A stretch of 64,000 bases of DNA from Alloascoidea hylecoeti (taxonomy: Eukaryota). The stretch covers positions 186,001 through 250,000 of the forward strand of contig BCKZ01000014.1 in NCBI GenBank assembly GCA_001600815.1. Direction: 5' to 3'. Positions 34,523 through 53,272 of the stretch are shown in pieces. The notes beneath the pieces are model-generated. The model made no database searches and was not told where the DNA came from. It was given only the letters and a program-made list of their open reading frames with translations. Every line of letters starts with the position of its first letter. Positions within the stretch are counted from its first letter, which is position 1. A program made the translations under genes and the position numbers.

Positions 34523-36164
34523 TAACAAACCATGTCCAATGAAGGTCATACATTCTAGCCCTATATGTATAAAAATTGTCATAAATTTCCAGAGGAAAGC
34601 GGAGAAGAAGTACGTAGGGTTTGATTTCTTATCTACATATAAGATTTGAAAGGCTTAGTATGACCGAATATTTAGCGCCCAATTCCAAAAGTGCCAATTA
34701 TTGGCATCCAATGGTCGAATATAGTTAATTATGTGGTCCGATATTAGCAGAACACCAATCTAGAAATTTCATTCAAAGAATGGGCGAATATATAGTACAT
34801 CATATGGTTGAATAAATAATTCAAAATGGTACTGAATATTAGTTTATCAAGTGGTCTAAATTAAGATGTTGTTTTATTAAGCCTTCGCGATCGGTTAAAG
34901 GAGTTTTAATTAACCTAATTCCTTAGGGAAGAATCTGGGAACTGCGAAGTCTTTTCCAATATTGTTACAGGATACTTTAGGCTTCAGCCGTGCGTAAACA
35001 AGACTGTTGTAACTATAAACGTCGATTATTCATTTACCGGTTTGAATCAATTGCTAGGTAATTTAGAACGGTGGTGAATGTCGGTTAATGATTAAAAAAG
35101 AAAATTGAACTTTACACATTTGAACTTTGAAGGTCCATTTTCCCTTATCATACACACTTATAATTATATTCTTGATATTTGTACATGTAACAATAAATTT
35201 ACTCATGTAATCATAAATGCAAATTTTCATTTGCAACCAGAGGAGTACTACATCTACATGTATTTCAAATTTTAAGTATGGATGCTATAGTAAATAATTA
35301 GCTTTCGCTTCTACATGATTAATAAGGCAGGGTATCAGGGACAGCAATGCATTTTACACATTATAGAGGGGGTATAGATTTGTTGAGAAACTTAATATGA
35401 AAATTTAATCCTTGAGAGCTCAAATAATGAGGAAAAATCAGTTTCACACTTGTATCCGATGATTCTGATCTATCTTTCCTTAAAAATGTGTCCCTCCATT
35501 ATTATTATCTTTTTTATCTAAAAGATCAGACGACTAGAAGACGTTATTTCAACCCTCTAAAATATGGAAAATGTTAGATTCAAGTCATATGGCACCTAAA
35601 TTCCGCTGGTGATATTACTACTGGCGTAAAAGTAAATAGCAATGAAGAATATACGGTTGATAGAGCCTATGAAAATGACGTACTTAATAGTATTCAAAAT
35701 AGAGAAGAAGTTAAAGTTAATACTAATTATAATTCAATTGATATTAGATACCAAGTTGGTTGAAGATCAAGATATTAGTGATCATTTTAACATAAACTTT
35801 GGTGCTCCCAATCCCATCTCCTTTACAAATATCCTAATTGTTACATGTAGCTTTAGTTCCCTATAGCATGTACCTCTTCGCTTCTAATTTAATTGGTGTT
35901 CAATTTTTGCCTTAATTATGTGTTCTCCTATACTTTTTTTTCTAATTGGCTTTATAATTCTTAAATGAAAATGCTGTATCACCTAACGTTTACCTCTAGT
36001 AATTGACTCCAAGCAACTCTAATTTACCAATAATCTTATATTCGGATTAAGACAATAAAGAGATTTACAAACACAATGGGAAAAACTATTTTGTGATTAA
36101 GACGGTCCCGGTATGGGTGTCGGTATAGGGTCGAAAAGTTACCAGCACATGTAGGATAAGAGGA

Positions 36165-36349
36165 GAGTTATTTCACTTAATATCGGCGGCCATGTTGGTT
36201 ATTAAATATCGGGCACCAGAGCATTAAATTTAGTCACTATTATTACAGGCATCCTAGGGGTATGTACGGAACAAACAAGGGTGTCAAGCCCTGCAGAAAA
36301 ATGGCTGATACTTAATAATCAGAATGGACGAAAGTAAGTGAGATGACTT
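36165..36349. mobile_element. MITE with both degenerate TIRs (~185 bp)
   Basis: gagttatttcacttaatatcggc ... atggacgaaagtaagtgagatgactt|TA; shares sub-terminal tcagaatg with the 30111 copy. Confidence 0.5.
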
Positions 36350-37464
36350 TATAATATATATTCGTACCTATATGTATAGTAAATACTTCTCTTTTAATTA
36401 ATCATAATCATTACATGGCTCTACACGTTACCACGCAATAGTTTAAACTGTTCCATGGTTTCCTCAAGATGTACTTCGGGGGCTTTCTCTAGCAAGTATT
36501 AGCCCAGTAATTAACATCATAAAGAAATTTAAATCATTAGCTGATTACAATTCATGATCATTATGGCGTTGTCTAACAGAGCGTTAATTAAATTTCGTGA
36601 GAGGTGACATACTATTATGATACATCGTTATATTTCTTATAATCACCGTGAATCACTGCAAATTGCATCTCTATAAAATCTACGATATACTCTCCCCAAA
36701 AATACTCAAAATGCTTTTCTAGAAATAAATGCAAGTAACAAATTTAAATCAATGAATCGAATATCGAAATACTTTAAGCATCATTTTCCGTAACACACAT
36801 GGAAGATCTTCAAGGCATCCTTACAGCTAGTATTGTAGATTATTAGTCTCCTTTTATCTGTCACTATATGTTTATATTCTCATAATCCAAATTGTAGTCC
36901 TTAGAATAATAGTTAAGTGCTGTTGGCGATTTAGATCTGTTTACTATCTCGTCATATATGAGTAAATGCCCTCCTATTTTGAACGAATCAAATTTCAATA
37001 TATCCTAAAAAAATTTAATATAATCGTAGACTCCTGCAGATGTCCCGAAATCGTAAAATTGCATTTTGTAGCTTTAATAATCTTTATAGCGCTATATCTT
37101 CAGCGATTCCTAAAATTAAGGCTTGGTAATTTTAGGGACCAGAGTAAATAACAATTTACTAATATTATAAATGATTAATAAGTAACTATAAGTTATCAAA
37201 TAAGCTATATATACATATAGATGTATGGATATTATATAATTTAGGGCCTATATATGTGTGCGGCTTTAAACCTAAACTTTCATTTACGGTTAAAGTTTTT
37301 GTTACTGTTTGGTTACCTTTTATGCAGCAACGGATGTAGTCATTAAGAATTGTTCCGATTTCCAGCCGTTCTCCATGAGATTATATTATTTAAATATTTT
37401 AAAGTCATATAAATACGACGATGATTGCCAAATATTTTAAATTTTGTAAAATAAAAGTGTGGTC

Positions 37465-39318
37465 ATGACCAAAAAAGTAGTGCCGGCAGAAGAAACCGAT
37501 CATAATTCTTCAAGTACGTCAGACCAAGACTTACCAATATACTCTTCACTTAATCCTAAACCTTCTATACCTGATTTAAATTCAAATACAGATATAAATG
37601 TTGAAGGAGTTGCATCAGAATATACGACCGATGATGAAAAGACTCGCCCATTTACAATAAGAAATGATTCTTATCCAATTTCAGACAACGGAAACAATAA
37701 TACAGACACTTCTTATAATATACCACTAGGATTAACATTATCAAGAGTTACGACAAACGATAGCGAAAATAATGATCTTGAAAGAGTGGACACAACCATT
37801 TCACAATTGGGTACAAGACGCCCCGAATTATTTAAATCGACATTTATAGAAGTTCTTGTGGTTTTAGTTGCAACTATGGCCCCAGCTACAATATCCATGG
37901 CATCGGGCTCATTCCAAATTGCTATTAAGAGTGTATCAGAATACTTTAATGTAACAGGTGGTAGATTAACTTGGATAGTTTCAGGAATGTCAGTTGCTAA
38001 CGGTTCATTCCTCCTTCTTCTTGGTGGTATTTCTGATCATTTTGGGAGAAAAAGATGTTTTGTAACCTCTTTTGCTTTATATACTATTGTTTCATTAGTT
38101 GGAGGATTTTGTACAAATTTTGTCGCTCTTAATATTATGAGAGCTCTTCAAGGTGTTGTTTGTGCTGCTGCTATTCCAGCTGGGGCGGGTATTTTAGGTG
38201 CAACATATCATCCAGGACCACGGAAAAATAAAGCTTTAGCTTGTTTTGCGGCAGGAGCCCCCGTTGGTGTTATTGTTGGATTTGTCTGTGGTGGTATATG
38301 TGCCCAATTTTTATCATGGAGAGCAATTATGTATTTTTATGCCATAATCTATAGCATCCTTACAGTTATTGCATATTTTGTATTACCTGACGATCCTGAT
38401 AAATTAAACTGGGCAATTGCTAAGCGAAAATTGAAAAAAATGGATTTTGGAGGTGCTTTAATTGCAATTGCTGGTCTTTTATTATTTATTGTTGCTCTAA
38501 CACAAGAAGGAGCTGAAGAAAAAGGTTGGAAAACTCCATATATTATTGCATTACTTATTATTGGATTTTTTCTAATTGTTGGATTTTGCTTTTATGAAAT
38601 TTATATCCCAACTGAACCATTAATGCCAATGAATATATGGAAAAATAAAACCTTTGATCTATGTATGGTGATTATGTCAATTAATTGGCTATTATTTAAC
38701 GGTGTTTTAGGGTACTATCCTTTGTTATATTTTGAAGAAATTAGAGGAACTTCTCCAATGTTGACTACTGCTTATATTATACCGATGGCAATAGGTGGAA
38801 TTTCTGTTAACATTTTCGCAGCATTCACTTTACATATAATTCCTGGTAGAATTCTTTTGATAACTTCATCTTTGGGCTTTTTAGCAGCTACTATATTATG
38901 GGCGCTTACGCCAATAGATGTTCTTTACTGGGCAATGCCATTCCCTGCTTTTATTCTGGTTGTAGTAGGTGCTGATCTTTCCTATAACGTTGTTAATATG
39001 GTAGCATTGACATCAGTTCCAAAGGAATTACAATCTACAGCTTCTGGTATCTTTAATACACTTATTCAATTAGGAACGGCTATTGGCCTCAGTATCTCAT
39101 CAGCTATAGTCTCTGCTATGTATCCTGAATATGGTAAACCAGGCGAAACGACAGATATCCATAAATTATACCATGCTTTTAAAGGAGCCTTTTACTTTGC
39201 TGTTGGTTGTGCTGGGGCTGGTATTATTCTTAGTTTTTTTATAAACGTTGGCACGGCTGGTAGTAAACACGATATTCAAAGGCATAAAGATGCACACAAA
39301 AATCTTAGGCAGCAATAG
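37465..39318 (+). CDS. MFS drug:H+ antiporter (DHA2, Atr1-like, ~14 TM)
   Basis: GGISDHFGRKR (motif A), RALQG, GAPVGVIVGFVCGG (motif C), SWRAIMY, MDFGGA; first ATG 37465. Confidence 0.85.
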   Translation: MTKKVVPAEETDHNSSSTSDQDLPIYSSLNPKPSIPDLNSNTDINVEGVASEYTTDDEKTRPFTIRNDSYPISDNGNNNTDTSYNIPLGLTLSRVTTNDSENNDLERVDTTISQLGTRRPELFKSTFIEVLVVLVATMAPATISMASGSFQIAIKSVSEYFNVTGGRLTWIVSGMSVANGSFLLLLGGISDHFGRKRCFVTSFALYTIVSLVGGFCTNFVALNIMRALQGVVCAAAIPAGAGILGATYHPGPRKNKALACFAAGAPVGVIVGFVCGGICAQFLSWRAIMYFYAIIYSILTVIAYFVLPDDPDKLNWAIAKRKLKKMDFGGALIAIAGLLLFIVALTQEGAEEKGWKTPYIIALLIIGFFLIVGFCFYEIYIPTEPLMPMNIWKNKTFDLCMVIMSINWLLFNGVLGYYPLLYFEEIRGTSPMLTTAYIIPMAIGGISVNIFAAFTLHIIPGRILLITSSLGFLAATILWALTPIDVLYWAMPFPAFILVVVGADLSYNVVNMVALTSVPKELQSTASGIFNTLIQLGTAIGLSISSAIVSAMYPEYGKPGETTDIHKLYHAFKGAFYFAVGCAGAGIILSFFINVGTAGSKHDIQRHKDAHKNLRQQ

Positions 39319-39892
39319 AATACCAAATCTCGACTAACCAATGAAGTATAAATTACCTAAAATTTTCTAGATGAACACTGGTGGTTTAAATTTTTAAAAG
39401 TCGTATGCATCAAAAGGTTAGGAGTTAATTGGTTTATAGTTTTACATTTGCATTTATATTTATATTTATATTTATATATGCTCTCAAACATCTATAAAGT
39501 TGTATGTAGATACCTTCACAGGTGAATAAGATGCCGTTTGTTTGGATTTATAATTATAACCGTTTTTGATTTCATAATCCACCTTTTTTACTACGTATTT
39601 CAATGGAAAATAACATTAATACAGAGGGGCTAGTTTTTTATTGAATCATCCTTACACCCATCGGCCACCAACGGAAAAAAATCCAACACAATCGTAACCC
39701 GGCTAGTTCAGTCACTATTTGAGAATTCGTATTTCTTCAGTTCTTCAACGAATATAACACTCCCCTATAATCTCTTACTCTAGTGCTTAAATTACAAAAT
39801 ATTATATTTTGGATTCATTAGGTGTTTTAAGCAGAGGCAAAAACAAATAAACCCATATCAACGGAAAATAAATTTAAAATAGCAACAAGAAG

Positions 39893-41181
39893 ATGGTCGA
39901 ACGAGGACCCGATTTTTGGCTTGAACAAGTAAAGAAATGTCGATCATTACCGGAATCTGAAATGAAAATGTTATGTGAAATGGTTAAAGAGCTATTGATG
40001 GAAGGTATGATATTTTATTAAAGATCCTCGACAAATATCAACGAGCTATCGATATCGTTGACATCACCATTCAAGTTTTGGCTAATACGAAATTTTTTTG
40101 ATTTCAGAATCAAATATTCAACCTGTTAAATCTCCGGTTACAGTGTGTGGGTAAGTTTTTCAGCGATCTAACACCATATTATTGAATATGTATACTAATG
40201 ATTTTTATAGTGGTAAGTACAAAATGGATGCTGAGATTGTCTATAAAATTATGTGAACTAATATTTTTTGGTTAGATATTCATGGGCAATTCCACGATTT
40301 ATTGGAATTATTTAGAATCAGTGGCGGCTTACCTGATTCAATAAATTACATCTTCTTGGGAGATTATGTCGATAGAGGATATTTCAGTTTAGAAACATTT
40401 ACATTATTAATGGTATTAAAGGCAAAGTAAGCAGACAAAATAAATATTTCGTTGATATGAAAAATTCATTGCTAATGATGAATATATAATAGATATCCAC
40501 AACGAATTACGTTAGTTCGAGGGAATCACGAAACTAGACAGATCACTCAAATTTATGGATTTTTTGGTATGTCATACTAGTCATAATTAGTTCTCGGAAA
40601 CTAATAACTAACGAAAACATGTACATCTAGAGGAATGTCTTACAAAGTATGGAAGCACGACAGTATGGAAATATTGCTGTCAAGTTTTTGATTTCTTAAC
40701 ATTGGCTGCTATAATAGACGGAAGAATTTTATGTGTACATGGTGGTCTTTCTCCCGAAATCCGTATGTTGGATCAGATTAGTGTTCTTTCGAGAGCACAA
40801 GAGGTTCCACATGAAGGTGGGTTCTCTGATCTTGTTTGGTCTGACCCAGATAATGTTGATACATGGGCAGTTTCACCTCGAGGAGCCGGTTGGCTGTTTG
40901 GAGCTAGGGTTGCCCGTGAATTTAATCATGTCAATAATTTAAGTCTGATTTCAAGGGCCCATCAATTAGTTATGGAAGGTTTCAGGTATCATTTTGAAGA
41001 AAAGGATGTTGTTACAGTCTGGTCGGCACCCAATTATTGTTATAGATGTGGTAATGTTGCCAGTGTCATGAAGATTGGAGAGGACCTTGTTCCCAAATTT
41101 AAGATATTCAGTGCCGTTCCTGATGATATGAACGCTCGGATTGCACCACAGAAGACACAGAGGAGTGAATATTTCTTGTGA
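39893..41181 (+). CDS. SIT4: PP6/Sit4 Ser/Thr phosphatase, 6 exons (39893-40004, 40108-40150, 40211-40212, 40276-40426, 40493-40566, 40631-41181; 310 aa)
   Basis: Spliced product [11 protein letters not shown]...[14 protein letters not shown]...GDYVDRG...RGNHE...[11 protein letters not shown]...YFL; all five introns GT-AG with CTAAY branch motifs. Confidence 0.93.
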
Positions 41182-41277
41182 TTTGGTATTTGTTTTGTGT
41201 ATTGTGTATGGGTGTAATACTTTCTAAATTTCATGCTAAAGTGAATCAACTTCTCTGTAACCTAATTATAATTAAGA

Positions 41278-43636
41278 ATGGAAGATCCAGAAGAACGTCC
41301 CGGCCAACATCCAGACGAACCTCCGAGGAAGAGGAGTGCCACTTCAGGTATTTCTTTTATTTCTCCTTTTCGAGTGATTTTTTCCTTTTCATTTTCATAT
41401 TCTAACATTTCACATTTGAGGTAGCATGGTGAGTTATAATTATGACCATAAAAATATTCGTCAGCGCCTAACTATTATAGTTCAACATGCCATATACGAG
41501 GGATAATTTGTGAGTACAATTAAATTGTTGTTATCGACTTCCTGACGGTGGTTTCTAACTATGTATTTAATATAGGCGATAATTGGCAGCCTAGTTGCAA
41601 TGTAAGCCAATCTGACATCAAAAGTGGAGTTAGTATAACATAATGACTGGTACTAATATCTGTACAGAACTGTCGAGAAGGAAACAGGCTCGGCCGTTGG
41701 GAATACTCAGTAAGATTTCTTGAACCTGAAATAGAGGCCAATCATCATTTAATCAGTGTACCCCTTACTGAATCAAGTATGTGTTATTGGATTGCTGTTA
41801 TTACTATGACTTTGAACTTTCTGAACTGACAAGCGTCTAGCAAAAATCATCGATTTATCATTCCTTACAGTATCGAAGTACTTACCTATGGGTAGCGAGG
41901 GGCTTGAAGCTTTTAGAAATGCGAACTCTTATATTCCAAAGTCACACAGACCGGTCGAACACAAACTTACTTCCTCCGGCATGATCACAACCCGATCACA
42001 TATATTCACTGAAATTGTAAACCCACCAATAAATGATTTACAAACTGCAACTTTCGTGCGGTGCTTTTTAGACAACATCGCTCTTACATATGATATGTTT
42101 AATTCCAGAAACATCTTTACACAACTTGCTTTGCCATTGGCAAGGACAGAACCATTATTGATGCATGCTATATTAATGTGTGGTGCGGCATCTTATTATA
42201 AAACTAACAGGAAGAGGGAAAATACAACTGGATTACATATACCAATTCATCAAGAGGACCCAAGAATTTCAGAAGGGTATTATCGACGGATGCTTATAAT
42301 AAAACAAAAAAATGCTTGTATTAACATGGAAGCAAAATGCATGGCATATTTATTCATGATTACTTATCATTTCATAAAGTCAGAACCATTAAAACGAGAG
42401 GTTTTCTTGGAACTTTATCAACTAATCATTAAATTCCACTGGGAAAAAGATATTAAAGAGGGCCAATTTCCTGTCAATTCAATGGTTATTGATGCTTGTT
42501 TCTGGACGCTAATCGCTTTGGATTTTTTTACATCATTTTCTCAAGATATTCCTCCATCTATTGATCCTGCTGTGTGGGGTCCTGTACTGAAAATGCATGA
42601 CATACCCAAAAAAGCAAAAGAAATTTGGTGGGTTCGATTTGGCCTTTATGCCAATCTAAAAGTCAACGGCTTCAAATATAAATACGTAAAAGATTCAGAC
42701 TTTGAACCTAAAGACCAATTTTCTCAAGAGTGGACTGTTTTGGCTGATGCAATCTCACTGGCTGAGTCTTGTAATCCATCTGTTTTAATGCCAATTGTTA
42801 GCACAACTGACTATAAACATTTTTCTCTATCTCAAATATCAGAACATTCAATATATCCTGCTGTGGCCTCTCTTGAGCAAAAAGTGTATCCTTCAATTTT
42901 ATACTCATCAACTCTTGCTACTTTAGTCAGGATATTGCATTCTACTTTAATCATTGAAACTAACACTTGGCCTTCTTATAAAAATAATAATTTATTGACA
43001 TCTTTGTTTCACTCCCATTCTGTAGCTCCTGTTTCTATTTATGCTACTTTAAACGTATTTTTTGGAATGTTAACTTTCATAAAAGATACTAGAGTTGGAA
43101 TGATTTTAATACCGGCTGTATTTGCTTCAAACCAATATTTATTGACAAACGAAGAAAAAGAAGCAGTTAAAAATTATATGGAAGAAGTTTTAAATGAATT
43201 TCATAGTGAAGGCCATTCAAGATATTTATTATATGATCCACTGCCAAATGATACTATTTCAAGAATTATACTGGCAGATCGTCGAAAAAGTGCGATAGAA
43301 GAAATGTATTTACAAAATATTGAGGACAAACTAATGGAAATGAAAAAAAAACGATCTCCATCATCAGGAACGTTTCAATATCAAATGTGGCTAACTCGAT
43401 TCGGGATTAACAGTAGACGCGACCCCCTCCAGAATGCGCTACGAGTACCACCGGTTTCACTTCATCTTTCACAAATAATAAATGATGTTGATCGGCAGCA
43501 TAAGATTTTATTTAATCGAACTATTCGATATCGACAATTACTAACACAGTGTACCGAACTTCGGCAACAGCGATGTTTACCTTCAATAGCAGCAACTCCT
43601 CAGATTCAACTCCAATCATTGGAACAACAATCTTAA
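41278..43636 (+). CDS. Zn(II)2Cys6-type transcription factor, 6 exons (41278-41347, 41425-41428, 41481-41509, 41576-41601, 41668-41776, 41841-43636; 677 aa)
   Basis: Splicing gives RKRSATSACSTCHIRGIICDNWQPSCNNCREGNRLGRW in frame with the 582-aa ORF, which carries a fungal TF-like central region (NIFTQLALPLARTEPLLMHAILMCGA). Confidence 0.75.
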
Positions 43637-44448
43637 ATGTACTCAAAAACAACAATTACGATACCGCTTAGAAAAATATCAACAAAATTTTCATCGACAA
43701 CAATCTCATCAGTAATACCAACATTTCCAATTACCAATTATCAACCGAATAACTTTCCTAGCTATATTTATATATATCACTTTTTTATAGCTATAGACTA
43801 GATATCCATATCACCATCATGAATACCCTTTTTAACTTGATCATGATAAACAATATGAACATTTTTTTTAAAGTAATTACAGCTGCTTCAAAAATTCTGT
43901 TTTAATTTAATTTATTTATATTTTTTATTTTCATTATAGAATATAGAATATATTTTCACTTTAATTTTACTCTTATTAGTTTAAATTTATATATATAATT
44001 GCTTAATTAAACTTTCTCTTATTTCTTTATTCAAGCTCAAGTCTTGATCGATAAATCAATCTCTCTATAGATATATGCTAAATAAATATCTACCAAATCC
44101 ATCATTTTTATTACACTTTTCAAAAACATAAACCTTAAGAGTGATGATATCTTTTAACTATGGATACAAAATTAAATTTACTTAAACAATTCGCTCACTT
44201 TCACAATTTAATCCGCTGTTCTAAACATACACGAAGGGGATAATAACAAACTATGAACTAAAAATATATATATAAACTAACGGAAGAAGAATTATAGTTG
44301 TTATAGGTCTATAAGGTGTAGAGTCTGTAGACTCTGTAGAGTAGATATGTTTACACAATTATATTGTAATCATGCGCCGATGTTACATCACTGCTACAAA
44401 GAAAAAAGCATTTAATTAATTTTGCGGATTTCTCCTATAGTATTTAAA

Positions 44449-45485
44449 ATGTCGACCGAAAATCAACCCAAGGGATCCTTTAATATCGAGAATCAGATCA
44501 AAAGAAACCCTCACCCTGATTTCAAGAAAGTTGAATCATCCAGAGATCCTTTTGAGCAGGATATAAAATGGCATTTAAATCAAACTGTTAATCCTAATTG
44601 GAAACAGGGGAGTGGAATGAATAATTTAGAAAGTAAAAAAACTGTTGAAGATACTCCAAAGGTCGAGTTAGATCCATTTGGTGAGGGACGAAACCCAATT
44701 GATAATTATAAACTGTTGGTTTCAGGTATAATTCCAAGACCTGTATGTTTACTCATATAAATATTATGCTTGTTGAGAGATCTAGAGTTTATTTGGATAC
44801 TGTTATAACTTGGATTTTTTTGAATCAATTCAACCTTCTAACATTTTATTATAGATAGGATTTGTATCTACTATTTCAAAGGATAGTATTCCAAATCTAG
44901 CACTGTTTTCTTATACCACGGTGGTTAATCATGATCCACCAATATTCTGCATCGGCTTTTCGGGGGGTTACAAAGATACATGTCAAAATATCTTAGATAC
45001 TAAAGAATTAACAATAAATATCATTTCCGAATGGTTTATAGAGTAAGTGATTGATATATTCTGTAATAACGCCATGCATCAAATTAACTTCATGTCCGAT
45101 CAGAGCAGCAAACTTCACTAGCACAAACTCACCACCAGAAGTTGACGAATGGAAATTATCGGGGTTAACCCCTCTTCCAAGTACCAAGGTGCGCCCCCCT
45201 CATGTGAAAGAGAGTGCCTTTTCAATTGAAGCTAAACTGATTTATTCACATGATTGGACATCACATAATGATCCTGAAAAGAAAACAGGAACATTATGTA
45301 TTGTTGAAGGTATCAATTTCCATATTCGAAAAGATGTTGTTAATGATGATATGAATCAAATTGACCCAGTTAAACTAAAACCTGTATCAAGATTAGGTGG
45401 TATTACTTATGGAAGAACTACAGGTGGATATGAGTTACCCAGGCCCGATTTTGATAAAGAAGTGGTTCATGAAAATGCTAAATAA
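44449..45485 (+). CDS. Flavin reductase-like FMN-binding protein (introns 44743-44854, 45043-45103; 287 aa)
   Basis: NYKLLVSGIIPRP|IGFVST, NLA.FSY, NHDPP, KDTCQNI, INIISEWFIE|AAN, VRPPHVKES, RLGGITYG. Confidence 0.85.
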
Positions 45486-45715
45486 TAATAATAAATGTCA
45501 TGAAACTATTTTGAGTAAATTATATACACTAATATTAGATAACTTCTAGACAATGAACAGAATGTTTCATTTTGCTACTGATTGCTGTCTCCCTCTAGAA
45601 TATATTAAAACGTTTTTCAAAAAGTACTATGATCGTAGTATAGTTAAATGTACAACAAAAAGGGGATCATTTTCAACAGATTTGAATAAAATCAATGTAA
45701 TTATATATAGTAGTT

Positions 45716-48700
45716 CTAGTTTGTTGACTCTTTCATAATATTATCAATAATTGGATGCTTCTTTAATAAAGACTCTGGACTTGGGCGATACCTAGGAACG
45801 AGTTTCTTATCAATTGAATTTTGTTTATTGGTCTTTTGACTTTTCAAAGTTCTACTCCCTTTAGGAGAAGCTAATACTGGTGAAAGATTTAGAACTTTGT
45901 AGAGCTCCAATGCATTTGGTGGTAGTTGATACAGCCAATCATTTTCCTTAATAACATTCAAGAATGTCTTTAACATCTCTAACGTTTCCAAAGTCTTCTT
46001 AGAACCAACAATAATTAGTTTACTTTTCGCTCTAGTAATTGCGACATTCAATCTTCTCCAATCTCTTAATAAGTCACCAACAAGATGTTTATCGTTAGAT
46101 CTAACCAAAGATATAATGACACATTCTTTGTCTGTGCCTTGGAACTTATCCGCCGTCATAATTTGTAAACCTTTGTGCTGCCCAAGCATTTCATTGAGCA
46201 CCTTCAGCTGTTCTCTATAAACTGAAAGAACTCCAATTGATTCTGGAGCAACATCACACAAAAATAATGTCTCAACAAGACATTTTATGATCTTTGCTTC
46301 CACAGAATTACTATATCCATCCTTTTTCCGTTCTTCAAGTCCAGGAAGTTTATCCGTATCAAGAAATACAACTTTTGACTGTTCATTCAAAACATATTTC
46401 ATCCAATCTATTTCTTGTAAATATGTTTCGCCTTGTAAATAAATCTGACTAGCTTTCTTAATACTAGGAATTTTAAAGTTTTGTTCAGCGACCTTTTCTG
46501 TACCACATTTTAATTCTCCTTCATAAATTAAAGTGTTTGCTAGTATAACAATATCATTGCACATACGATATTGATATGATAAATTTGTCACAGCTTCTGG
46601 ATGATCATCTGCTAACATCTTAAATAAACTTAAATCTAAACCACCACTCTTGGCTTCTGGATTTTTCACCAATGGAGTTAATTGATTAGGATCACCAACT
46701 AAAACAAACCTGTCACAAAAACGTAAAGGCCCAATACAAAAAGGTAAAGTGATCATACTAGCTTCATCAACGATACAATAATCAAAATGCCTTTTATTGA
46801 AAAGAAAGTGCTGAATTCCCATCACTGTTGATCCAACGATTGGTGGTTTGTAATAAATATCCTCTAATTCTTGTTGATTTTTTGGGGTTGTTTTTTCAGT
46901 TCTACCAGGTATAAACCTTTGAATTAAAGGATGAACATTTTTGAAATGACCAACTCGAACTATTCCTAATTTATCGTCTTTCAGCTTTAACAAAATATTA
47001 TCAACTGCAGCATGGGTATATGAAGTTAGCAAGACTGATTTATTACGAGCTACTAACATCCTAACCAATTGAGCAATCGTCGTTGTTTTACCTGTCCCCG
47101 GCATGCCTAAAAGCAGTGAATAATCTTTACTTCTCATAACCATATCAAATGCTTTAACTTGATCATCGTTGAACGTATGATTTTTAGGCAATTCATAATA
47201 ATCTGCTTTCTTTCCAAACCTTGGCGGAACTTTATCTATAATCAATTTTGACCTCATTTTATCTCCATCAGGTAAAAGATAATTTATAATATTATACCTT
47301 GCAATTCCCATTCTTTGCATCTCATCCTGCTTATCTATTCTGTAAGTAATTCCAGGTAAATCTTTGATTTTTTTTAAGTTGATCTGTGATCCTTTAAGTT
47401 GTGAAACATGAAGCATGCCTTTGAATTGTTGATTGTCTTTTGAATTGTAACCAGGTAATCGAACTATTGATTGTGTTAATGGTTTATTTGTTGATATTGT
47501 AATTGATTGGGAGGTAATTGTCTTTACGAAGCCATTACAAAGTGCAAAGTGACCTTCTTCATCAGAAATGTGAACATGATCAAGCAAATTTATTTGAGTA
47601 TCTGTGAACAGAGTCGTAATAGGAGATGATGCATTTCTTATAAAAGTATAGTCTATACGACTGACCAATGGAATATCAGCTTCGTCATCCGTAGGTTGTA
47701 AGACCAAGTTTCCAATGCACCTAAATATTGTAAGTTAGAAAGAAACAAAATTGAGAGTAAAAAAAAGAAAAAGCATACCTTCCTGCAGCTTCCCTGACTT
47801 CACTTGTAGATATCCAAAGTTCTTTCAAAAATGTTCCCATGGTTGTTTCTTCCATGCTCAGTAGTTTATCATATTTATTGAAAAATTCTATGTATGGTTT
47901 ACTAGCATTTTGAGTAATTGAATTAAATTCTTCGATGCCAGAGCTTTCTGCATTACCATCCTCCAGTGCTTTATGATAAGTCATACATTCAGATATAGCA
48001 TAACAACTCTTGGCAGAACATGGTCCAACTGCTCTTAACATATCTGGAAGATTTCGATCTCCATTAACGAAAAAATATTTTGCAATTTTATTTCTTCCAA
48101 TTATTAAAGAACGTATTTCATGCCACATTTTAGGAATTTGTGTTGTTTGTTCAAGTTCAGAATAATATAGTAAAGAAAAACAAGTTTCAATATCATATCT
48201 ATCAAACAACAGTAGAGTATATAATAAAACCTGAGCTGAATGGGAAATATTCTGTGTCCGGCCAGTTTTGATTTCAAGTGGTACTAAAAAGTTACCAATT
48301 TCTCTGTTATTCACCTTTGCCTCAACAGTAACATCAATAATCCCTTTCAAACCAAACATTGGTGACCATATTTCTTCTTCAATATCGATTACTCTGTTAA
48401 TTGACAAATCAGATAACTCATTACTGCCTAGAACTGGCACCCGAACATTAGAATGTGAATATGCTGAAGTTCCAGTACCTAATTTAAACATTTTTGCTGC
48501 CCAATCCCTAAATTTTGGAAATTTTGGTCTAATGAAAGATGCAACTGAATCTTTTGTTTCGTTAATAAGCAAAATATTTAATAAATTTGAATCTAAATTT
48601 TCACCTAGTATTGCTTCCATATGATTATTTGAAAATGAATTGAGTTGAAGACAGCCTTGTATAATTTCGTGTATAATTGTACCATAAACAATATACTTAT

Positions 48701-50834
48701 TAACTTCTGATGGTAAAGAAATGCGTTGTTTTAAAACCGTTCTTCTTTCACAATGAAAAGATTCAGAAACTGTTGTAACTGGAATAAGTATATCAGGATG
48801 TAATACCAATAAATTTTGATGATCGTCAACAATGATTTCACTGGCTTTATTATCATCATAATCGCCCACTATATGAATAACATCTTTCGGTGATATCTCA
48901 AGCTGACACCATGAGTCTCTGAGAATAATCCTTTTAAAGAGTGCACCAGACATCTTAGCATTTAAAATCTTTTGTGGTTTCGTCCGATTTCCATTTATTG
49001 CAGCATCATCTTTAACATTTATAATCTGATACCGATGAAGATTCCTTCGTCTAAATGCTAGTGTCGTTAAGTCTTGTTGTTTATTTTTGTCGCTATTCCG
49101 TGAAGTTGTAGAAGTTGTTTCTGCCTTGAATATGGAAGAATGCCTCGTACTACTTCTTGTTGCGGGAGTATTTGCCGTACGTATTTTAGGTATCACTTGA
49201 GACTTTTCAAACTCATCGAGAAAATTATCAAGATCCTCTTGATTTTCATCACTTTCGGTTTCATTATCAAAATCATCAATTTCACAACTTGCTTTTGTAT
49301 TTTTATTTGTTTTTATGATAGTTTCTTTTTGTGGTGGAGGTAGTCGTGGTGGCAGTACAAAGTTTTGAATTTTTGGCGGATTCATATTCGTAGACATTAC
49401 AGAGGTCACAGTTCGCATAGAATCTGCTTCCAAATCATTTAAATCTAGAGATAGATCATCCAAATCATCATCAAAATCATATGAACTTGAACTGTTTGGC
49501 GCAGTATCTTTTGGTTGGGTTATATCTTTATCTATAATGTCGATCTTTTTTATTGGTGCTTGAGTTTGAATTTCAGATTCTATTAAATCTAATTGCTTAA
49601 AATCATATTCCTCATCGTCTTCAAATATGTCATCAAAATCAGATTCACCGGAATTGTTCTTCTTTTCTGAAAGTTTCGGCATCTCTTTAACTGTAGTATC
49701 CGATTGTGTTTGTGATGAATCTTTCTGACTACTTCGGTCAAGATTTGGCGAGGATGGTGGAAGAATTGTGGTACAATTTGGGTCTAACATAGAGATATCG
49801 TCCATTTCATTTTTATTATTGTCATTGATGTGATTAATCCTAGTTTCATTCTGTTGATAAAATGATAGATCATCAATTGATTGATCATTACTCTCAGAAT
49901 TTTCTATTTCATCCATTAAAGAGGATATATTCTCCTTCCCTGTCTTTTGATTGTAAATTTCAAGATCTGTCAATAGTCTTGAGCTTTTTGATTCTAATTG
50001 ATGCAAAAGATTTGTTTTCATTAAGGGACTTCCATAATTTTTATTTATAAACTCTCCTGATTCTAACCATGGTTTTGCAGTAGTCAAAGGAGTAGGAAAT
50101 GGTACTTTTTTTGAAGGGAGTCCGTAAATAGATTTTGATCTTTTAAATGATCTTGATCGTATACTTGAGTTTATATTTGACTTTTCGGGGGTAGTTTGTT
50201 CATAATTCGAATGGCTTCTCGATAATTTTCTATTTGCTGATTGAGAATTAGCCCTTGGAGACCAATTTTCAATTTTGGTATTATATTTCTTTGCTAGGGA
50301 ATTAACTGGATCATTTTCATCTTCAAATGGCACGGAAACCTGATTTTTTCTGCGAGCTGGAGTAATATAGTTTGAATTCCTATCTATTGTAATTGGAGAG
50401 GAGGAAGATATCATAGTTTTCCGCCTATTATCAACCGGATATTCCCAATAAACATGATCATCACTACTTGGATTTAACGCAATGGTTCTCTGTTTTGCAG
50501 GAGTTTTTAGATTCATATTTGTATTTGTGTTCGCATTTATGTTTTTGTTTTTGTTTTTGTACGTATTTGTGTTTGTGTTTGTGTAACTGCTGTCTATTGG
50601 ATCTGATGAAGGTTTGTTTTCATCAAGTCTATCTGTCGGAGTAAATGAGTAAAAACGTTTACTCTTTTGATTTAATTTTGCATTTGGTGGAGAGATCTCA
50701 GGAACAGATACATTCTTCTTATCTTGATTTAATTTGATCTTCTTCCTTTCATGGGATACGGGTTGAGGTAATCCTTTTGCAGTATCCCCTAGACTTATCA
50801 TCACTCTCTTATTTCCTCGGTTCATCGGACCCAT
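45716..50834 (-). CDS. DNA2: Dna2 nuclease/helicase (intron 47721-47778; ~1686 aa)
   Basis: Nuclease motifs DIEEEIWSPMFGLKGIIDVT, PLEIKTG, Fe-S cysteines; SF1 motifs GMPGTGKTT, IVDEAS, LVGDPNQL, QYRM, RRLNVAITRAK; a GTATGC...CTAAC...TAG intron joins the two ORFs in frame. Confidence 0.95.
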
Positions 50835-50920
50835 TGATATCTGAGATTATGTATAATCCCTCTAATTATGTTATTAAACAAATTGAATAATATATTGGGT
50901 GAAAACAATATGGCAAAAAT

Positions 50921-50968
50921 GTCGCGACGCGCCTGATGGTAAGAAGAAACAATTTTAACACGCGTTTT
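50921..50968. promoter_or_regulatory. MCB elements in DNA2 promoter
   Basis: gtcgcgacgcgc and acACGCGT ~90-130 bp upstream of the ATG. Confidence 0.6.
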
Positions 50969-51907
50969 TTTCCGGCCGTATAATTCTGATATAACGTGAA
51001 AATCAATTGAATGAAAATGCAAGAAAAAAAAAAGTATTTTATGATATAATAATAATAATGTATATACTTTCCGGATCTGGAGAATCGTTACTGAAAAAAA
51101 ATTGCAAATGTGGTGTAATGATGTTTGTAAATCTCAAACTTTAAGTTTGCATCAAAGAACTAAAAATTATCTATCAATTGCAATTCCCAATTCCCATCAT
51201 AAGCTGAAGAAAGTGATCTACAATTCATATAATAGTTGGATATTGGGGTGAATTATTTATTAATGTTTTTGAAAAAGCTTCACTACTTCTAGAAATATTT
51301 ATTTGCGATATTGATGAGTACCCTTATCAATATCCTATCATTATATAAATTAAACTATACCAATCACGATATAAGAGGATGAAAAGAATTGAGATGCATA
51401 AAGACGTTAAATTTTTATTTAATTTAAGAGTTTTTCTATTTGCCAATAGTATGTGTTGAACTTTTAAACATTTTTCCATTAACTTTGCATTATTATAGAT
51501 TATGCACTTCTAATGTTGCAATATGCAATATTATAAATTTTCCTTAATAAAGCTTAATCGGGAATTACGTATAAGTGCATACGTATAGGCTATATCATAT
51601 TCATAATAATTTCATATTCAAATTTTCAAGGAGATATCCTATTGGTAAAATTTTCTCTGAAGTCACCATCTTATGTTTCATAAATAATTCTTAGAGATAT
51701 ATTGGTTAAATAGGAGTATTGTGCCATAATTTAGACATAAATCCAAGGCTTCAATTACAATTGAAATTGCAAACTATATAATTATATTTGATATCTCTCA
51801 GCATTATCTATTTATATTTATAAAGTTAGACTCACTTGCTTTGTTTTATCTTACCAATCACAAAATAACAGTTTTAGATTTAAGATATATAATATTCCTG
51901 TTACGAA

Positions 51908-53272
51908 ATGTCAAAGAAATCATCAATGAATCCAGGTTTCTCAAATTTAAAAAGCAATTGTCAAGTGAATTATTCACTTGGAAATCTGATAGGTTTTGGT
52001 TCATATGCTAAAGTCTATGAATCAACTCTTGCATATAATCAAAATTATGGTTATGATATCGATAGTATCAACGGCCATGAACTAAAGTCAAATGAACCAA
52101 ATTGTTCAATAAAGGTTATATCAAAAAATGAACTGAAAGGATGTGAATTTTTGATAGAAGAAGAAATAAGAATTCTATCAATGATCTCTTTAAAACATCC
52201 CAATATTCTTTCTTTATATGACTATTTTCATACGGAAGATAGTATATGTCTTGTTACGGATTTAGCAACGGGCGGCGAACTCTATGATCATATAGTTAAC
52301 AAAGAAGAAGAAAGATTTACAGAAGAAGCAACAATTGATATAATCAGAACCCTAACTGAGGCAGTTAGCTCTTTACATGATCAAAATATTGTTCACAGAG
52401 ATCTTAAAGCAGAAAATATATTATTTAAAAATAAAGAAAGTGAAAATGGATCTAATATTCTATTAATCGATTTTGGTTTTGCTACAAAAATTGAAGATGG
52501 TAAAAACTTACAATTGAAATGTGGAACTGAACTATACATGGCCCCAGAAATGCTAAATGGAAAAGAGTATAGTAAACCTGTTGATATTTGGGGTATTGGC
52601 ATAATAACATATTTTATGCTTGGTGGATATACACCTTTTCAACGAGAAACCCAAAGGGAGGAAAATCTAGCCATAATGGAAGGTGAATATGATTTTGAGC
52701 CTGCTGATTATTGGGGTTCTGTTTCACCACAAGCTAAGGATTTTATTTCAAGATGTTTAGAAGTAGATCCGAATAAAAGAATCAGTATTCATGAAGCACT
52801 ACTACATCCCTTTTTAAGAACCAATACTTCAGTTCTATTTGATGAAGATGACATTGATAGCATTAAAGATTTCAATCGCATTAATACGAATACAAGTACA
52901 AGTACCGGTCATACTAGTACTTATACAGAAGAATATCCCGATCTTACAACTGATGAGTTCCAATTTCAAGGTACTACGAATAAAGCTTCTTTGGATAACT
53001 TTACTTTAGATTTAAAATATTTTTTACTTCCAATAACGGTTGAGGACTGTGATTTTACTTCTACAGAAAGATTTGATATAAATTCAGCTTCGAGTGATGA
53101 TGATACCATTGATACTAATAATAATAATTTTAGTCCTCAAACTAGTCCTAAAATTACGATCGATAATCATCATATGCATCATTTGGATTATTGGAGAGAG
53201 ATAAGCACAGATCATATTGATATCGATGAGATTCCCCCTAGTCTTGATGAGAGGTTATTAAATCATTTATAA
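51908..53272 (+). CDS. CAMK-group Ser/Thr protein kinase (Cmk-like)
   Basis: GFGSYAKV, IKVISK, HPNIL, DLATGGEL, HRDLKAEN, DFG, CGT..YMAPE, DIWGIG, GYTPF. Confidence 0.88.
   Translation: MSKKSSMNPGFSNLKSNCQVNYSLGNLIGFGSYAKVYESTLAYNQNYGYDIDSINGHELKSNEPNCSIKVISKNELKGCEFLIEEEIRILSMISLKHPNILSLYDYFHTEDSICLVTDLATGGELYDHIVNKEEERFTEEATIDIIRTLTEAVSSLHDQNIVHRDLKAENILFKNKESENGSNILLIDFGFATKIEDGKNLQLKCGTELYMAPEMLNGKEYSKPVDIWGIGIITYFMLGGYTPFQRETQREENLAIMEGEYDFEPADYWGSVSPQAKDFISRCLEVDPNKRISIHEALLHPFLRTNTSVLFDEDDIDSIKDFNRINTNTSTSTGHTSTYTEEYPDLTTDEFQFQGTTNKASLDNFTLDLKYFLLPITVEDCDFTSTERFDINSASSDDDTIDTNNNNFSPQTSPKITIDNHHMHHLDYWREISTDHIDIDEIPPSLDERLLNHL

Follow-up and report, generated by a model that had tools for sequence, protein, structure and literature searches.

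Gene structure at the locus

The window analysed here is a 64,000-nt stretch of Alloascoidea hylecoeti contig BCKZ01000014.1 (positions 186,001 to 250,000, forward strand). Its DNA is eukaryotic and rich in A and T, its introns are short, and the genome to which it belongs measures 24.8 Mb. The focal gene lies downstream of a SIT4/PP6 phosphatase gene and comprises six exons separated by five introns (Table 1). Every intron has a canonical GT donor and carries a CTRAY branch motif 10–20 nt upstream of a TAG or CAG acceptor. Exon 1 encodes a basic PPRKR patch ahead of the zinc cluster, and its product aligns with the N-terminus of P0003, a Yarrowia protein (KAG5356015.1) labelled 'Adhesion and hyphal regulator 1'. 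The spliced product is an open 677-aa frame with cysteines at residues 25, 28, 35, 42 and 45.

Table 1. Features of the focal gene and its surroundings, numbered from the first letter of the window
Feature	Position	Strand	Length (nt)	Description
MFS transporter gene	37450–39318	+		
SIT4/PP6 micro-exon	40211–40212	+	2	Between introns 40151–40210 and 40213–40275 (intron lister)
Spacer	41182–41277	+	96	SIT4 stop to ATG 41278
Possible 5′-UTR intron	41206–41276	+		GTATGG...CTAAT...AAG; would remove upstream ATGs 41208 and 41233
Exon 1	41278–41347	+	70	ATG 41278, favourable context with A at -3 and G at +4
Intron 1	41348–41424	+	77	Phase 1; donor GTATTT after CAG, branch CTAAC, acceptor TAG
Exon 2 (micro-exon)	41425–41428	+	4	Completes Ala24 and supplies two bases of Cys1 (residue 25)
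Intron 2	41429–41480	+	52	Phase 2; GTGAGT...CTAAC...TAG; found by splice-aware search
Exon 3	41481–41509	+	29	End of Cys1, Cys2, loop HIRGII, first base of Cys3
Intron 3	41510–41575	+	66	Phase 1; GTGAGT...CTAAC...TAG; found by splice-aware search
Exon 4	41576–41601	+	26	Remainder of Cys3, conserved Asp and Pro, Cys4
Intron 4	41602–41667	+	66	Phase 0; GTAAGC...CTAAT...CAG; found by splice-aware search
Exon 5	41668–41776	+	109	Cys5, Gly in place of Cys6, linker with family-conserved Phe
Codon 52	41692–41694	+		GGC (Gly); Cys6 column in 119/119 six-Cys family members
Intron 5	41777–41840	+	64	Phase 1; GTATGT...CTGAC...TAG
Exon 6	41841–43636	+	1796	Helical body resembling Fungal_trans_2, with an internal Met (41888), and C-terminal extension
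C-terminal extension	about 43210–43636	+		~110–140 aa, unmatched by homologues; helical in a low-confidence model
Flavin-reductase-like gene	44416–45485	+		Intron-split
Dna2-like helicase gene	45716–50846	-		

The original prediction for this DNA described a 4-nt exon (TAG/CATG/GTGAGT) that completes an Ala codon and opens the first Cys codon, and this exon is present as described. The pattern C-x2-C-x6-C-x6-C-x2-C that it read from the short exons, in frame with a 582-aa ORF, is borne out by the 677-aa frame; its exon list omitted exon 5, the carrier of Cys5. It also anticipated that annotation would miss the DNA-binding domain, and the automatic gene calls P0001 and P0002 indeed begin at Met 41888. 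At the level of sequence the exon model is real, and its splice junctions are predicted. Three metatranscriptome runs from the same study, compared with positions 36000–52000, gave short pieces that fell mostly over the phosphatase gene; none of them spanned a splice junction, and they are uninformative on expression. We saw no functional link between the focal gene and the neighbouring MFS transporter, flavin-reductase-like or Dna2-like helicase genes.

Recovery of the split cluster

The cluster was sought with a splice-aware Viterbi search, using a profile drawn from 28 clusters of the focal genome that each lie in one exon, 46 candidate introns, and splice scores that were set by hand and untrained. 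This search recovered introns 2, 3 and 4 exactly, at 19.0 bits, a score reached by none of 300 dinucleotide shuffles (maximum 9.7); the runner-up among the 125 distinct matches across the whole window and both strands scored 8.1 bits. When the exon letters were shuffled with the introns kept, 0 of 439 reached 19 bits, and the five-Cys spacing arose in 1 of 200,000 such shuffles. Against the own-genome profile of 28 clusters the spliced product scored 21.0 bits and none of the six unspliced frames more than 1.7, while a family N-terminal profile gave the spliced product 27.0 bits; the spliced product is thus homologous to both sets of clusters.

Intron 1 lies outside the Viterbi path. It is supported by the start codon, by the P0003 alignment and by the reading frame, since a direct join of exon 1 to exon 3 runs into a stop at aa 32. 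Its donor is the weakest of the five and lacks G at +5, as do two of 24 paralogue cluster introns. In cluster position and phase it equals an intron in paralogue L066, just as intron 4 equals one in paralogue L065. Most introns recovered within zinc clusters of the focal genome (16 of 24) share one position, in phase 0 and immediately before Cys3; intron 3 lies one base downstream of this commonest position, possibly through an intron slide. An internal cluster exon shorter than 52 nt was found in none of the 37 paralogous cluster loci scanned, loci that came from six-frame searches blind to heavily split clusters.

The stretch from the Cys6 column to Met96 scores nothing alone against P0003 (731 of 2000 shuffles reach its score) and -0.8 bits against the family profile, so the 3′ end of exon 5 rests on splice signals and frame. 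None of the 46 candidate introns offered an alternative splice route to a sixth Cys. One further junction, donor 41710 joined to 41841, was rejected as an alternative splice, since its frame stops at aa 105.

Protein family and body

A direct Pfam scan of the 603-aa frame returned no family, and six-frame searches of the genome with PF00172 and PF11951 did not list the focal gene. A full HMMER search with the long ORF, by comparison, found four non-self homologues at 23–26% identity; all four match PF11951 (Fungal_trans_2), three of them above the cut-off, and P0003 also matches Zn_clus. Residues 14–64 of the spliced product align without gaps to the P0003 cluster (0 of 2000 shuffles). Among the best 120 of 702 P0003 homologues, 119 have six cysteines, all with 6/6 spacers, and a profile made from these 120 matches the spliced product twice and in order, at the cluster (19.1 bits) and at the body (61.2 bits). 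The body match spans residues 138–529 and establishes homology to the Fungal_trans_2 body, and the top Atlas matches for the body are to PF11951, at 0.93.

The predicted fold of the body is weak (pLDDT 55, six sequences). In a comparison with 48,161 chains, its best match was the ligand-binding domain of Upc2 (Z 14.6, rmsd 2.5, 135 residues aligned), with Cep3-containing chains at ranks 4–5. In a Foldseek search with this weak model, nothing passed E ≤ 0.001; the weak rows were headed by Cep3 and Upc2.

As judged from its sequence, the focal protein is a member of the Ahr1/Zcf37-labelled family of Zn2Cys6 plus Fungal_trans_2 proteins, where 'Ahr1' and 'Zcf37' are automatic source labels and C. 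albicans Ahr1 itself lies outside the comparison set. Within the focal genome, the focal body is the best match to the P0003 body. Another locus, C32:123072 (L018, L039 and L088), carries an intact Ahr1-type cluster and linker that score 64 bits on the family profile, followed by a body that does not match this profile. Because that locus has the better Ahr1-type cluster and a different body, orthology of the focal gene to C. albicans Ahr1, which interacts with Mcm1 (PMC7188989), is uncertain.

In the search for close relatives, word-index searches with the ORF and with the alignment returned P0001 alone, and two metagenome scans were blank. P0001 is a second record of the protein encoded at window positions 41888–43633 and differs from it by a two-residue deletion near the C-terminus, and hence another strain or assembly exists.

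An eroded zinc cluster

The focal cluster has five cysteines at the correct spacing, with 6/6 spacers as in all 119 six-Cys family members, and Gly at the sixth position in the one assembly available. The published form of the Zn2Cys6 (PF00172) motif is CX2CX6CX5-16CX2CX6-8C (PMC10141177). The hidden Zn2Cys6 domain of the original prediction therefore stands in part: the split cluster region does belong to the 582-aa ORF, but it is incomplete, with Cys6 replaced by Gly and an eroded loop.

Compared with the 119 members, the focal cluster retains Cys1–5 and a single Arg of the loop, together with a Thr in the Cys1–Cys2 spacer, the Asp that follows Cys3, the Pro that precedes Cys4, an Asn, and the Phe of the linker. 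The recognition loop between Cys2 and Cys3 reads HIRGII against a near-fixed RERHLK, differing at five of six residues, and none of the seven columns before Cys1 matches the family consensus. A basic recognition loop is likewise gone: it holds a single Lys/Arg, where all 54 distinct intact clusters of the focal genome hold 2–6, and the residue preceding Cys3 is Ile rather than the Lys/Arg of 53 of these 54. As both comparison sets (54 own-genome clusters and 119 family members) were gathered by way of intact clusters, they understate natural erosion. Six of the seven partial cluster matches in the focal genome were checked, and Cys6 was present in all of them.

In the Gal4 structure, Cys1–4 hold one zinc and Cys1, 4, 5 and 6 the other, with the loop lysines reading a CGG triplet. 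C38 is the sixth zinc ligand of Gal4. The C38G substitution, used together with L32P, is cited as abolishing DNA binding by Gal4 (PMC1761428). With both Cys6 and the basic loop lost from the focal module, and binding lost in Gal4 C38G, DNA binding by the focal module is unlikely, and the sequence suggests that it probably no longer reads DNA. The focal regulator is, as far as its sequence tells, of the Zn2Cys6 family in origin and layout, and departs from a canonical cluster in two tested features, the sixth Cys and the basic loop.

Could the gene instead encode an ordinary DNA-binding Zn2Cys6 regulator of divergent specificity, with the Gly codon a base miscalled in the assembly or a lesion that only this strain carries? 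GGC at codon 52 is one base away from coding for the family Cys and may be a miscall, and Cys1–5, the structural Asp, Pro and Asn, and the spacers are all as in the family. Against this, the erosion exceeds one base, extending to the loop, with its one basic residue, and to the seven unmatched columns before Cys1. Single-base errors are also rare in finished yeast assemblies, and no second allele or second copy of the focal gene was found in the own-genome assembly. We consider this explanation unlikely.

Cluster-less paralogues

Four paralogous bodies occur in the genome, at C3:682.2k (+), C4:209.3k (-), C4:212.5k (-) and C4:220.1k (+), listed with L102–L104. A splice-aware search of the 1.5 kb upstream of each found no zinc cluster, the best scores (3.7–8.3 bits) being at shuffle level. 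A tree of bodies was built from 23 sequences, 14 of them from the best 120 of 702 P0003 homologues, and rooted at the midpoint. In this tree, the four cluster-less paralogues form a clade of their own (support 100), while the focal body has a longer branch than any other and falls, with weak support (67), beside three unnamed homologues; these have no called cluster but may carry hidden cluster exons.

Each of the four paralogues appears to have one internal intron, and three of them share upstream non-coding sequence, as expected for recent duplicates. Elsewhere in the genome, L055 (C28:61261) holds half a cluster, from Cys3 to Cys6 and then a stop, which resembles the clusters of L049, L058 and L064; it is probably a broken duplicate.

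Splice variants and start codons

The original prediction further proposed that exon skipping could yield an isoform starting from ATG 41888 and lacking the DNA-binding domain, which the frames do not support. Skipping any single internal exon leads to an early stop at aa 27–91 (aa 32 for exon 2), and with every intron retention included, the stops fall at aa 26–97. The in-frame skips are those of exons 2+3, 4+5 and 2–5, all of which would start from ATG 41278 and not 41888, and they call for introns of 219–493 nt, against the 52–124 nt seen in the focal gene and the clusters of its genome.

These results bear on the idea of a regulated micro-exon switch resembling Xlr2, in which inclusion would give the long form, and skipping, retention or a downstream start would give a cluster-less form from ATG 41888. 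Such a switch has a precedent in Trichoderma Xlr2 (PMC11121469), and the weak intron 1 donor and a 582-aa frame with its own Met would suit it. Yet beyond the early stops and the long introns that in-frame skipping calls for, ATG 41888, with C at -3, is in a weak context and is preceded by three other ATGs in the spliced message, and a switch would serve little purpose with a long form unable to bind DNA. As micro-exons are present here in a housekeeping gene (SIT4), small size alone is no pointer to regulation. Taken together, we regard a switch as very improbable.

Alternatively, exons 1–5 may be vestigial, the working protein starting at 41888 and the old cluster exons now serving as leader or promoter sequence. 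The short spacer between the SIT4 stop and ATG 41278 leaves little room for a promoter, and the eroded focal cluster and cluster-less paralogues are in keeping with such a remnant. Exons 1–5 are, on the other hand, without stops or frameshifts (1,895 of 200,000 shuffles are open), all five introns have intact splice signals, and ATG 41278 is in better context than ATG 41888. This makes a vestige quite improbable. The score of the intron-like element in the spacer is reached by 51 of 2000 shuffles and 12 of 1332 real tiles; a spacer of this length containing such an element hints that the promoter lies within SIT4 or that the two genes share one transcript.

Proposed function of the focal protein

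The explanation that we judge somewhat more probable than its negation is a constitutively spliced six-exon gene that encodes a 677-aa Ahr1/Zcf37-labelled regulator with an eroded cluster, the module being either in decay or repurposed. Each short intron would carry its own signals and be removed by intron definition, in which case exon size is irrelevant and no dedicated machinery is called for by the 4-nt exon; the neighbouring SIT4 gene likewise has a 2-nt exon, and very small exons seem to be a general feature of this genome. By the Gal4 layout, the module would retain the four ligands of one zinc site and three of the other, and with one site short of a ligand it would bind DNA weakly or not at all. 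Brought in by another factor, the protein may then work through its helical body in co-regulation or in sensing a ligand, by analogy with what TamA can do, and it would stand partway toward the loss of the cluster seen in the four paralogues. Against this explanation, the keeping of five cysteines despite the longest branch in the tree suggests that the cluster was under selection until recently, which fits a recent lesion or a miscall.

A narrower form of this explanation holds that the module is repurposed and not decaying. The scaffold of Cys1–5, Asp, Pro, Asn and linker Phe would be selected while the DNA-reading residues are gone, leaving a one-zinc or labile two-zinc module for protein contact or for metal or redox sensing; the gene, perhaps co-transcribed with SIT4, would be an intermediate caught on the way from intact Ahr1-type regulators to paralogues without a cluster. 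We hold this specific version to be rather unlikely.

For annotation, the eroded but otherwise split-and-hidden cluster is a caution that finding the hidden exons may still not yield a functional DNA-binding domain; in the focal gene and its paralogues, one family in one genome ranges from an eroded cluster to none. Should other strains show the same Gly and the same loop changes, the gene would offer a natural test of a Zn2Cys6 regulator that no longer reads DNA.

Comparison with known systems

Hidden Zn2C6 domains upstream of 'MHD-only' fungal transcription factors were described in the CeGAL work (Mayer et al. 2023), where such domains are presented as the rule for fungal regulators that pass as 'DBD-less' (PMC10141177). 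As in those cases, the focal cluster lies less than 1 kb upstream of a seemingly DBD-less body and was missed by gene calls, and one CeGAL example, the Rhizopus-type I1CF81, involves a mispredicted two-amino-acid exon (PMC10141177). The domains recovered there mostly have six cysteines and a fungal_trans (IPR007219) body (PMC10141177), whereas the focal protein has five and a Fungal_trans_2-like body. In the open-licence literature we found nothing on the focal family in these yeasts and no natural cluster without a sixth Cys, the latter a weak negative; the CeGAL supplementary tables may hold five-Cys cases.

Xlr2 of Trichoderma virens similarly has a micro-exon that encodes Zn(II)2Cys6 cysteines and was missed by annotation (PMC11121469). 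In Xlr2, this is one 20-nt exon, conserved across the genus, regulated by glucose and demonstrated by RNA (PMC11121469), whereas the focal gene has three small exons, predicted from genome sequence, and an eroded cluster. With the Ahr1/Zcf37-labelled family represented by P0003, the focal protein shares domain order, 6/6 spacers, structural cluster residues and body motifs; it differs in its low identity (~22%), the loss of Cys6 and of the RERHLK loop, an extra C-terminal tail and an intron-split cluster.

The functional model we propose is that of Aspergillus nidulans TamA and yeast Dal81, a Zn2Cys6 co-activator able to act without DNA binding, although TamA also binds DNA at some promoters (PMC4246892) and belongs to a different family. 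The Cys-to-Gly change at the sixth ligand parallels Gal4 C38G, which is an engineered or selected mutant cited with L32P (PMC1761428), whereas the focal Gly is found in natural genome sequence. Hidden clusters split by micro-exons are known, and a cluster divided by four introns that has naturally lost Cys6 and its recognition loop is a different combination.
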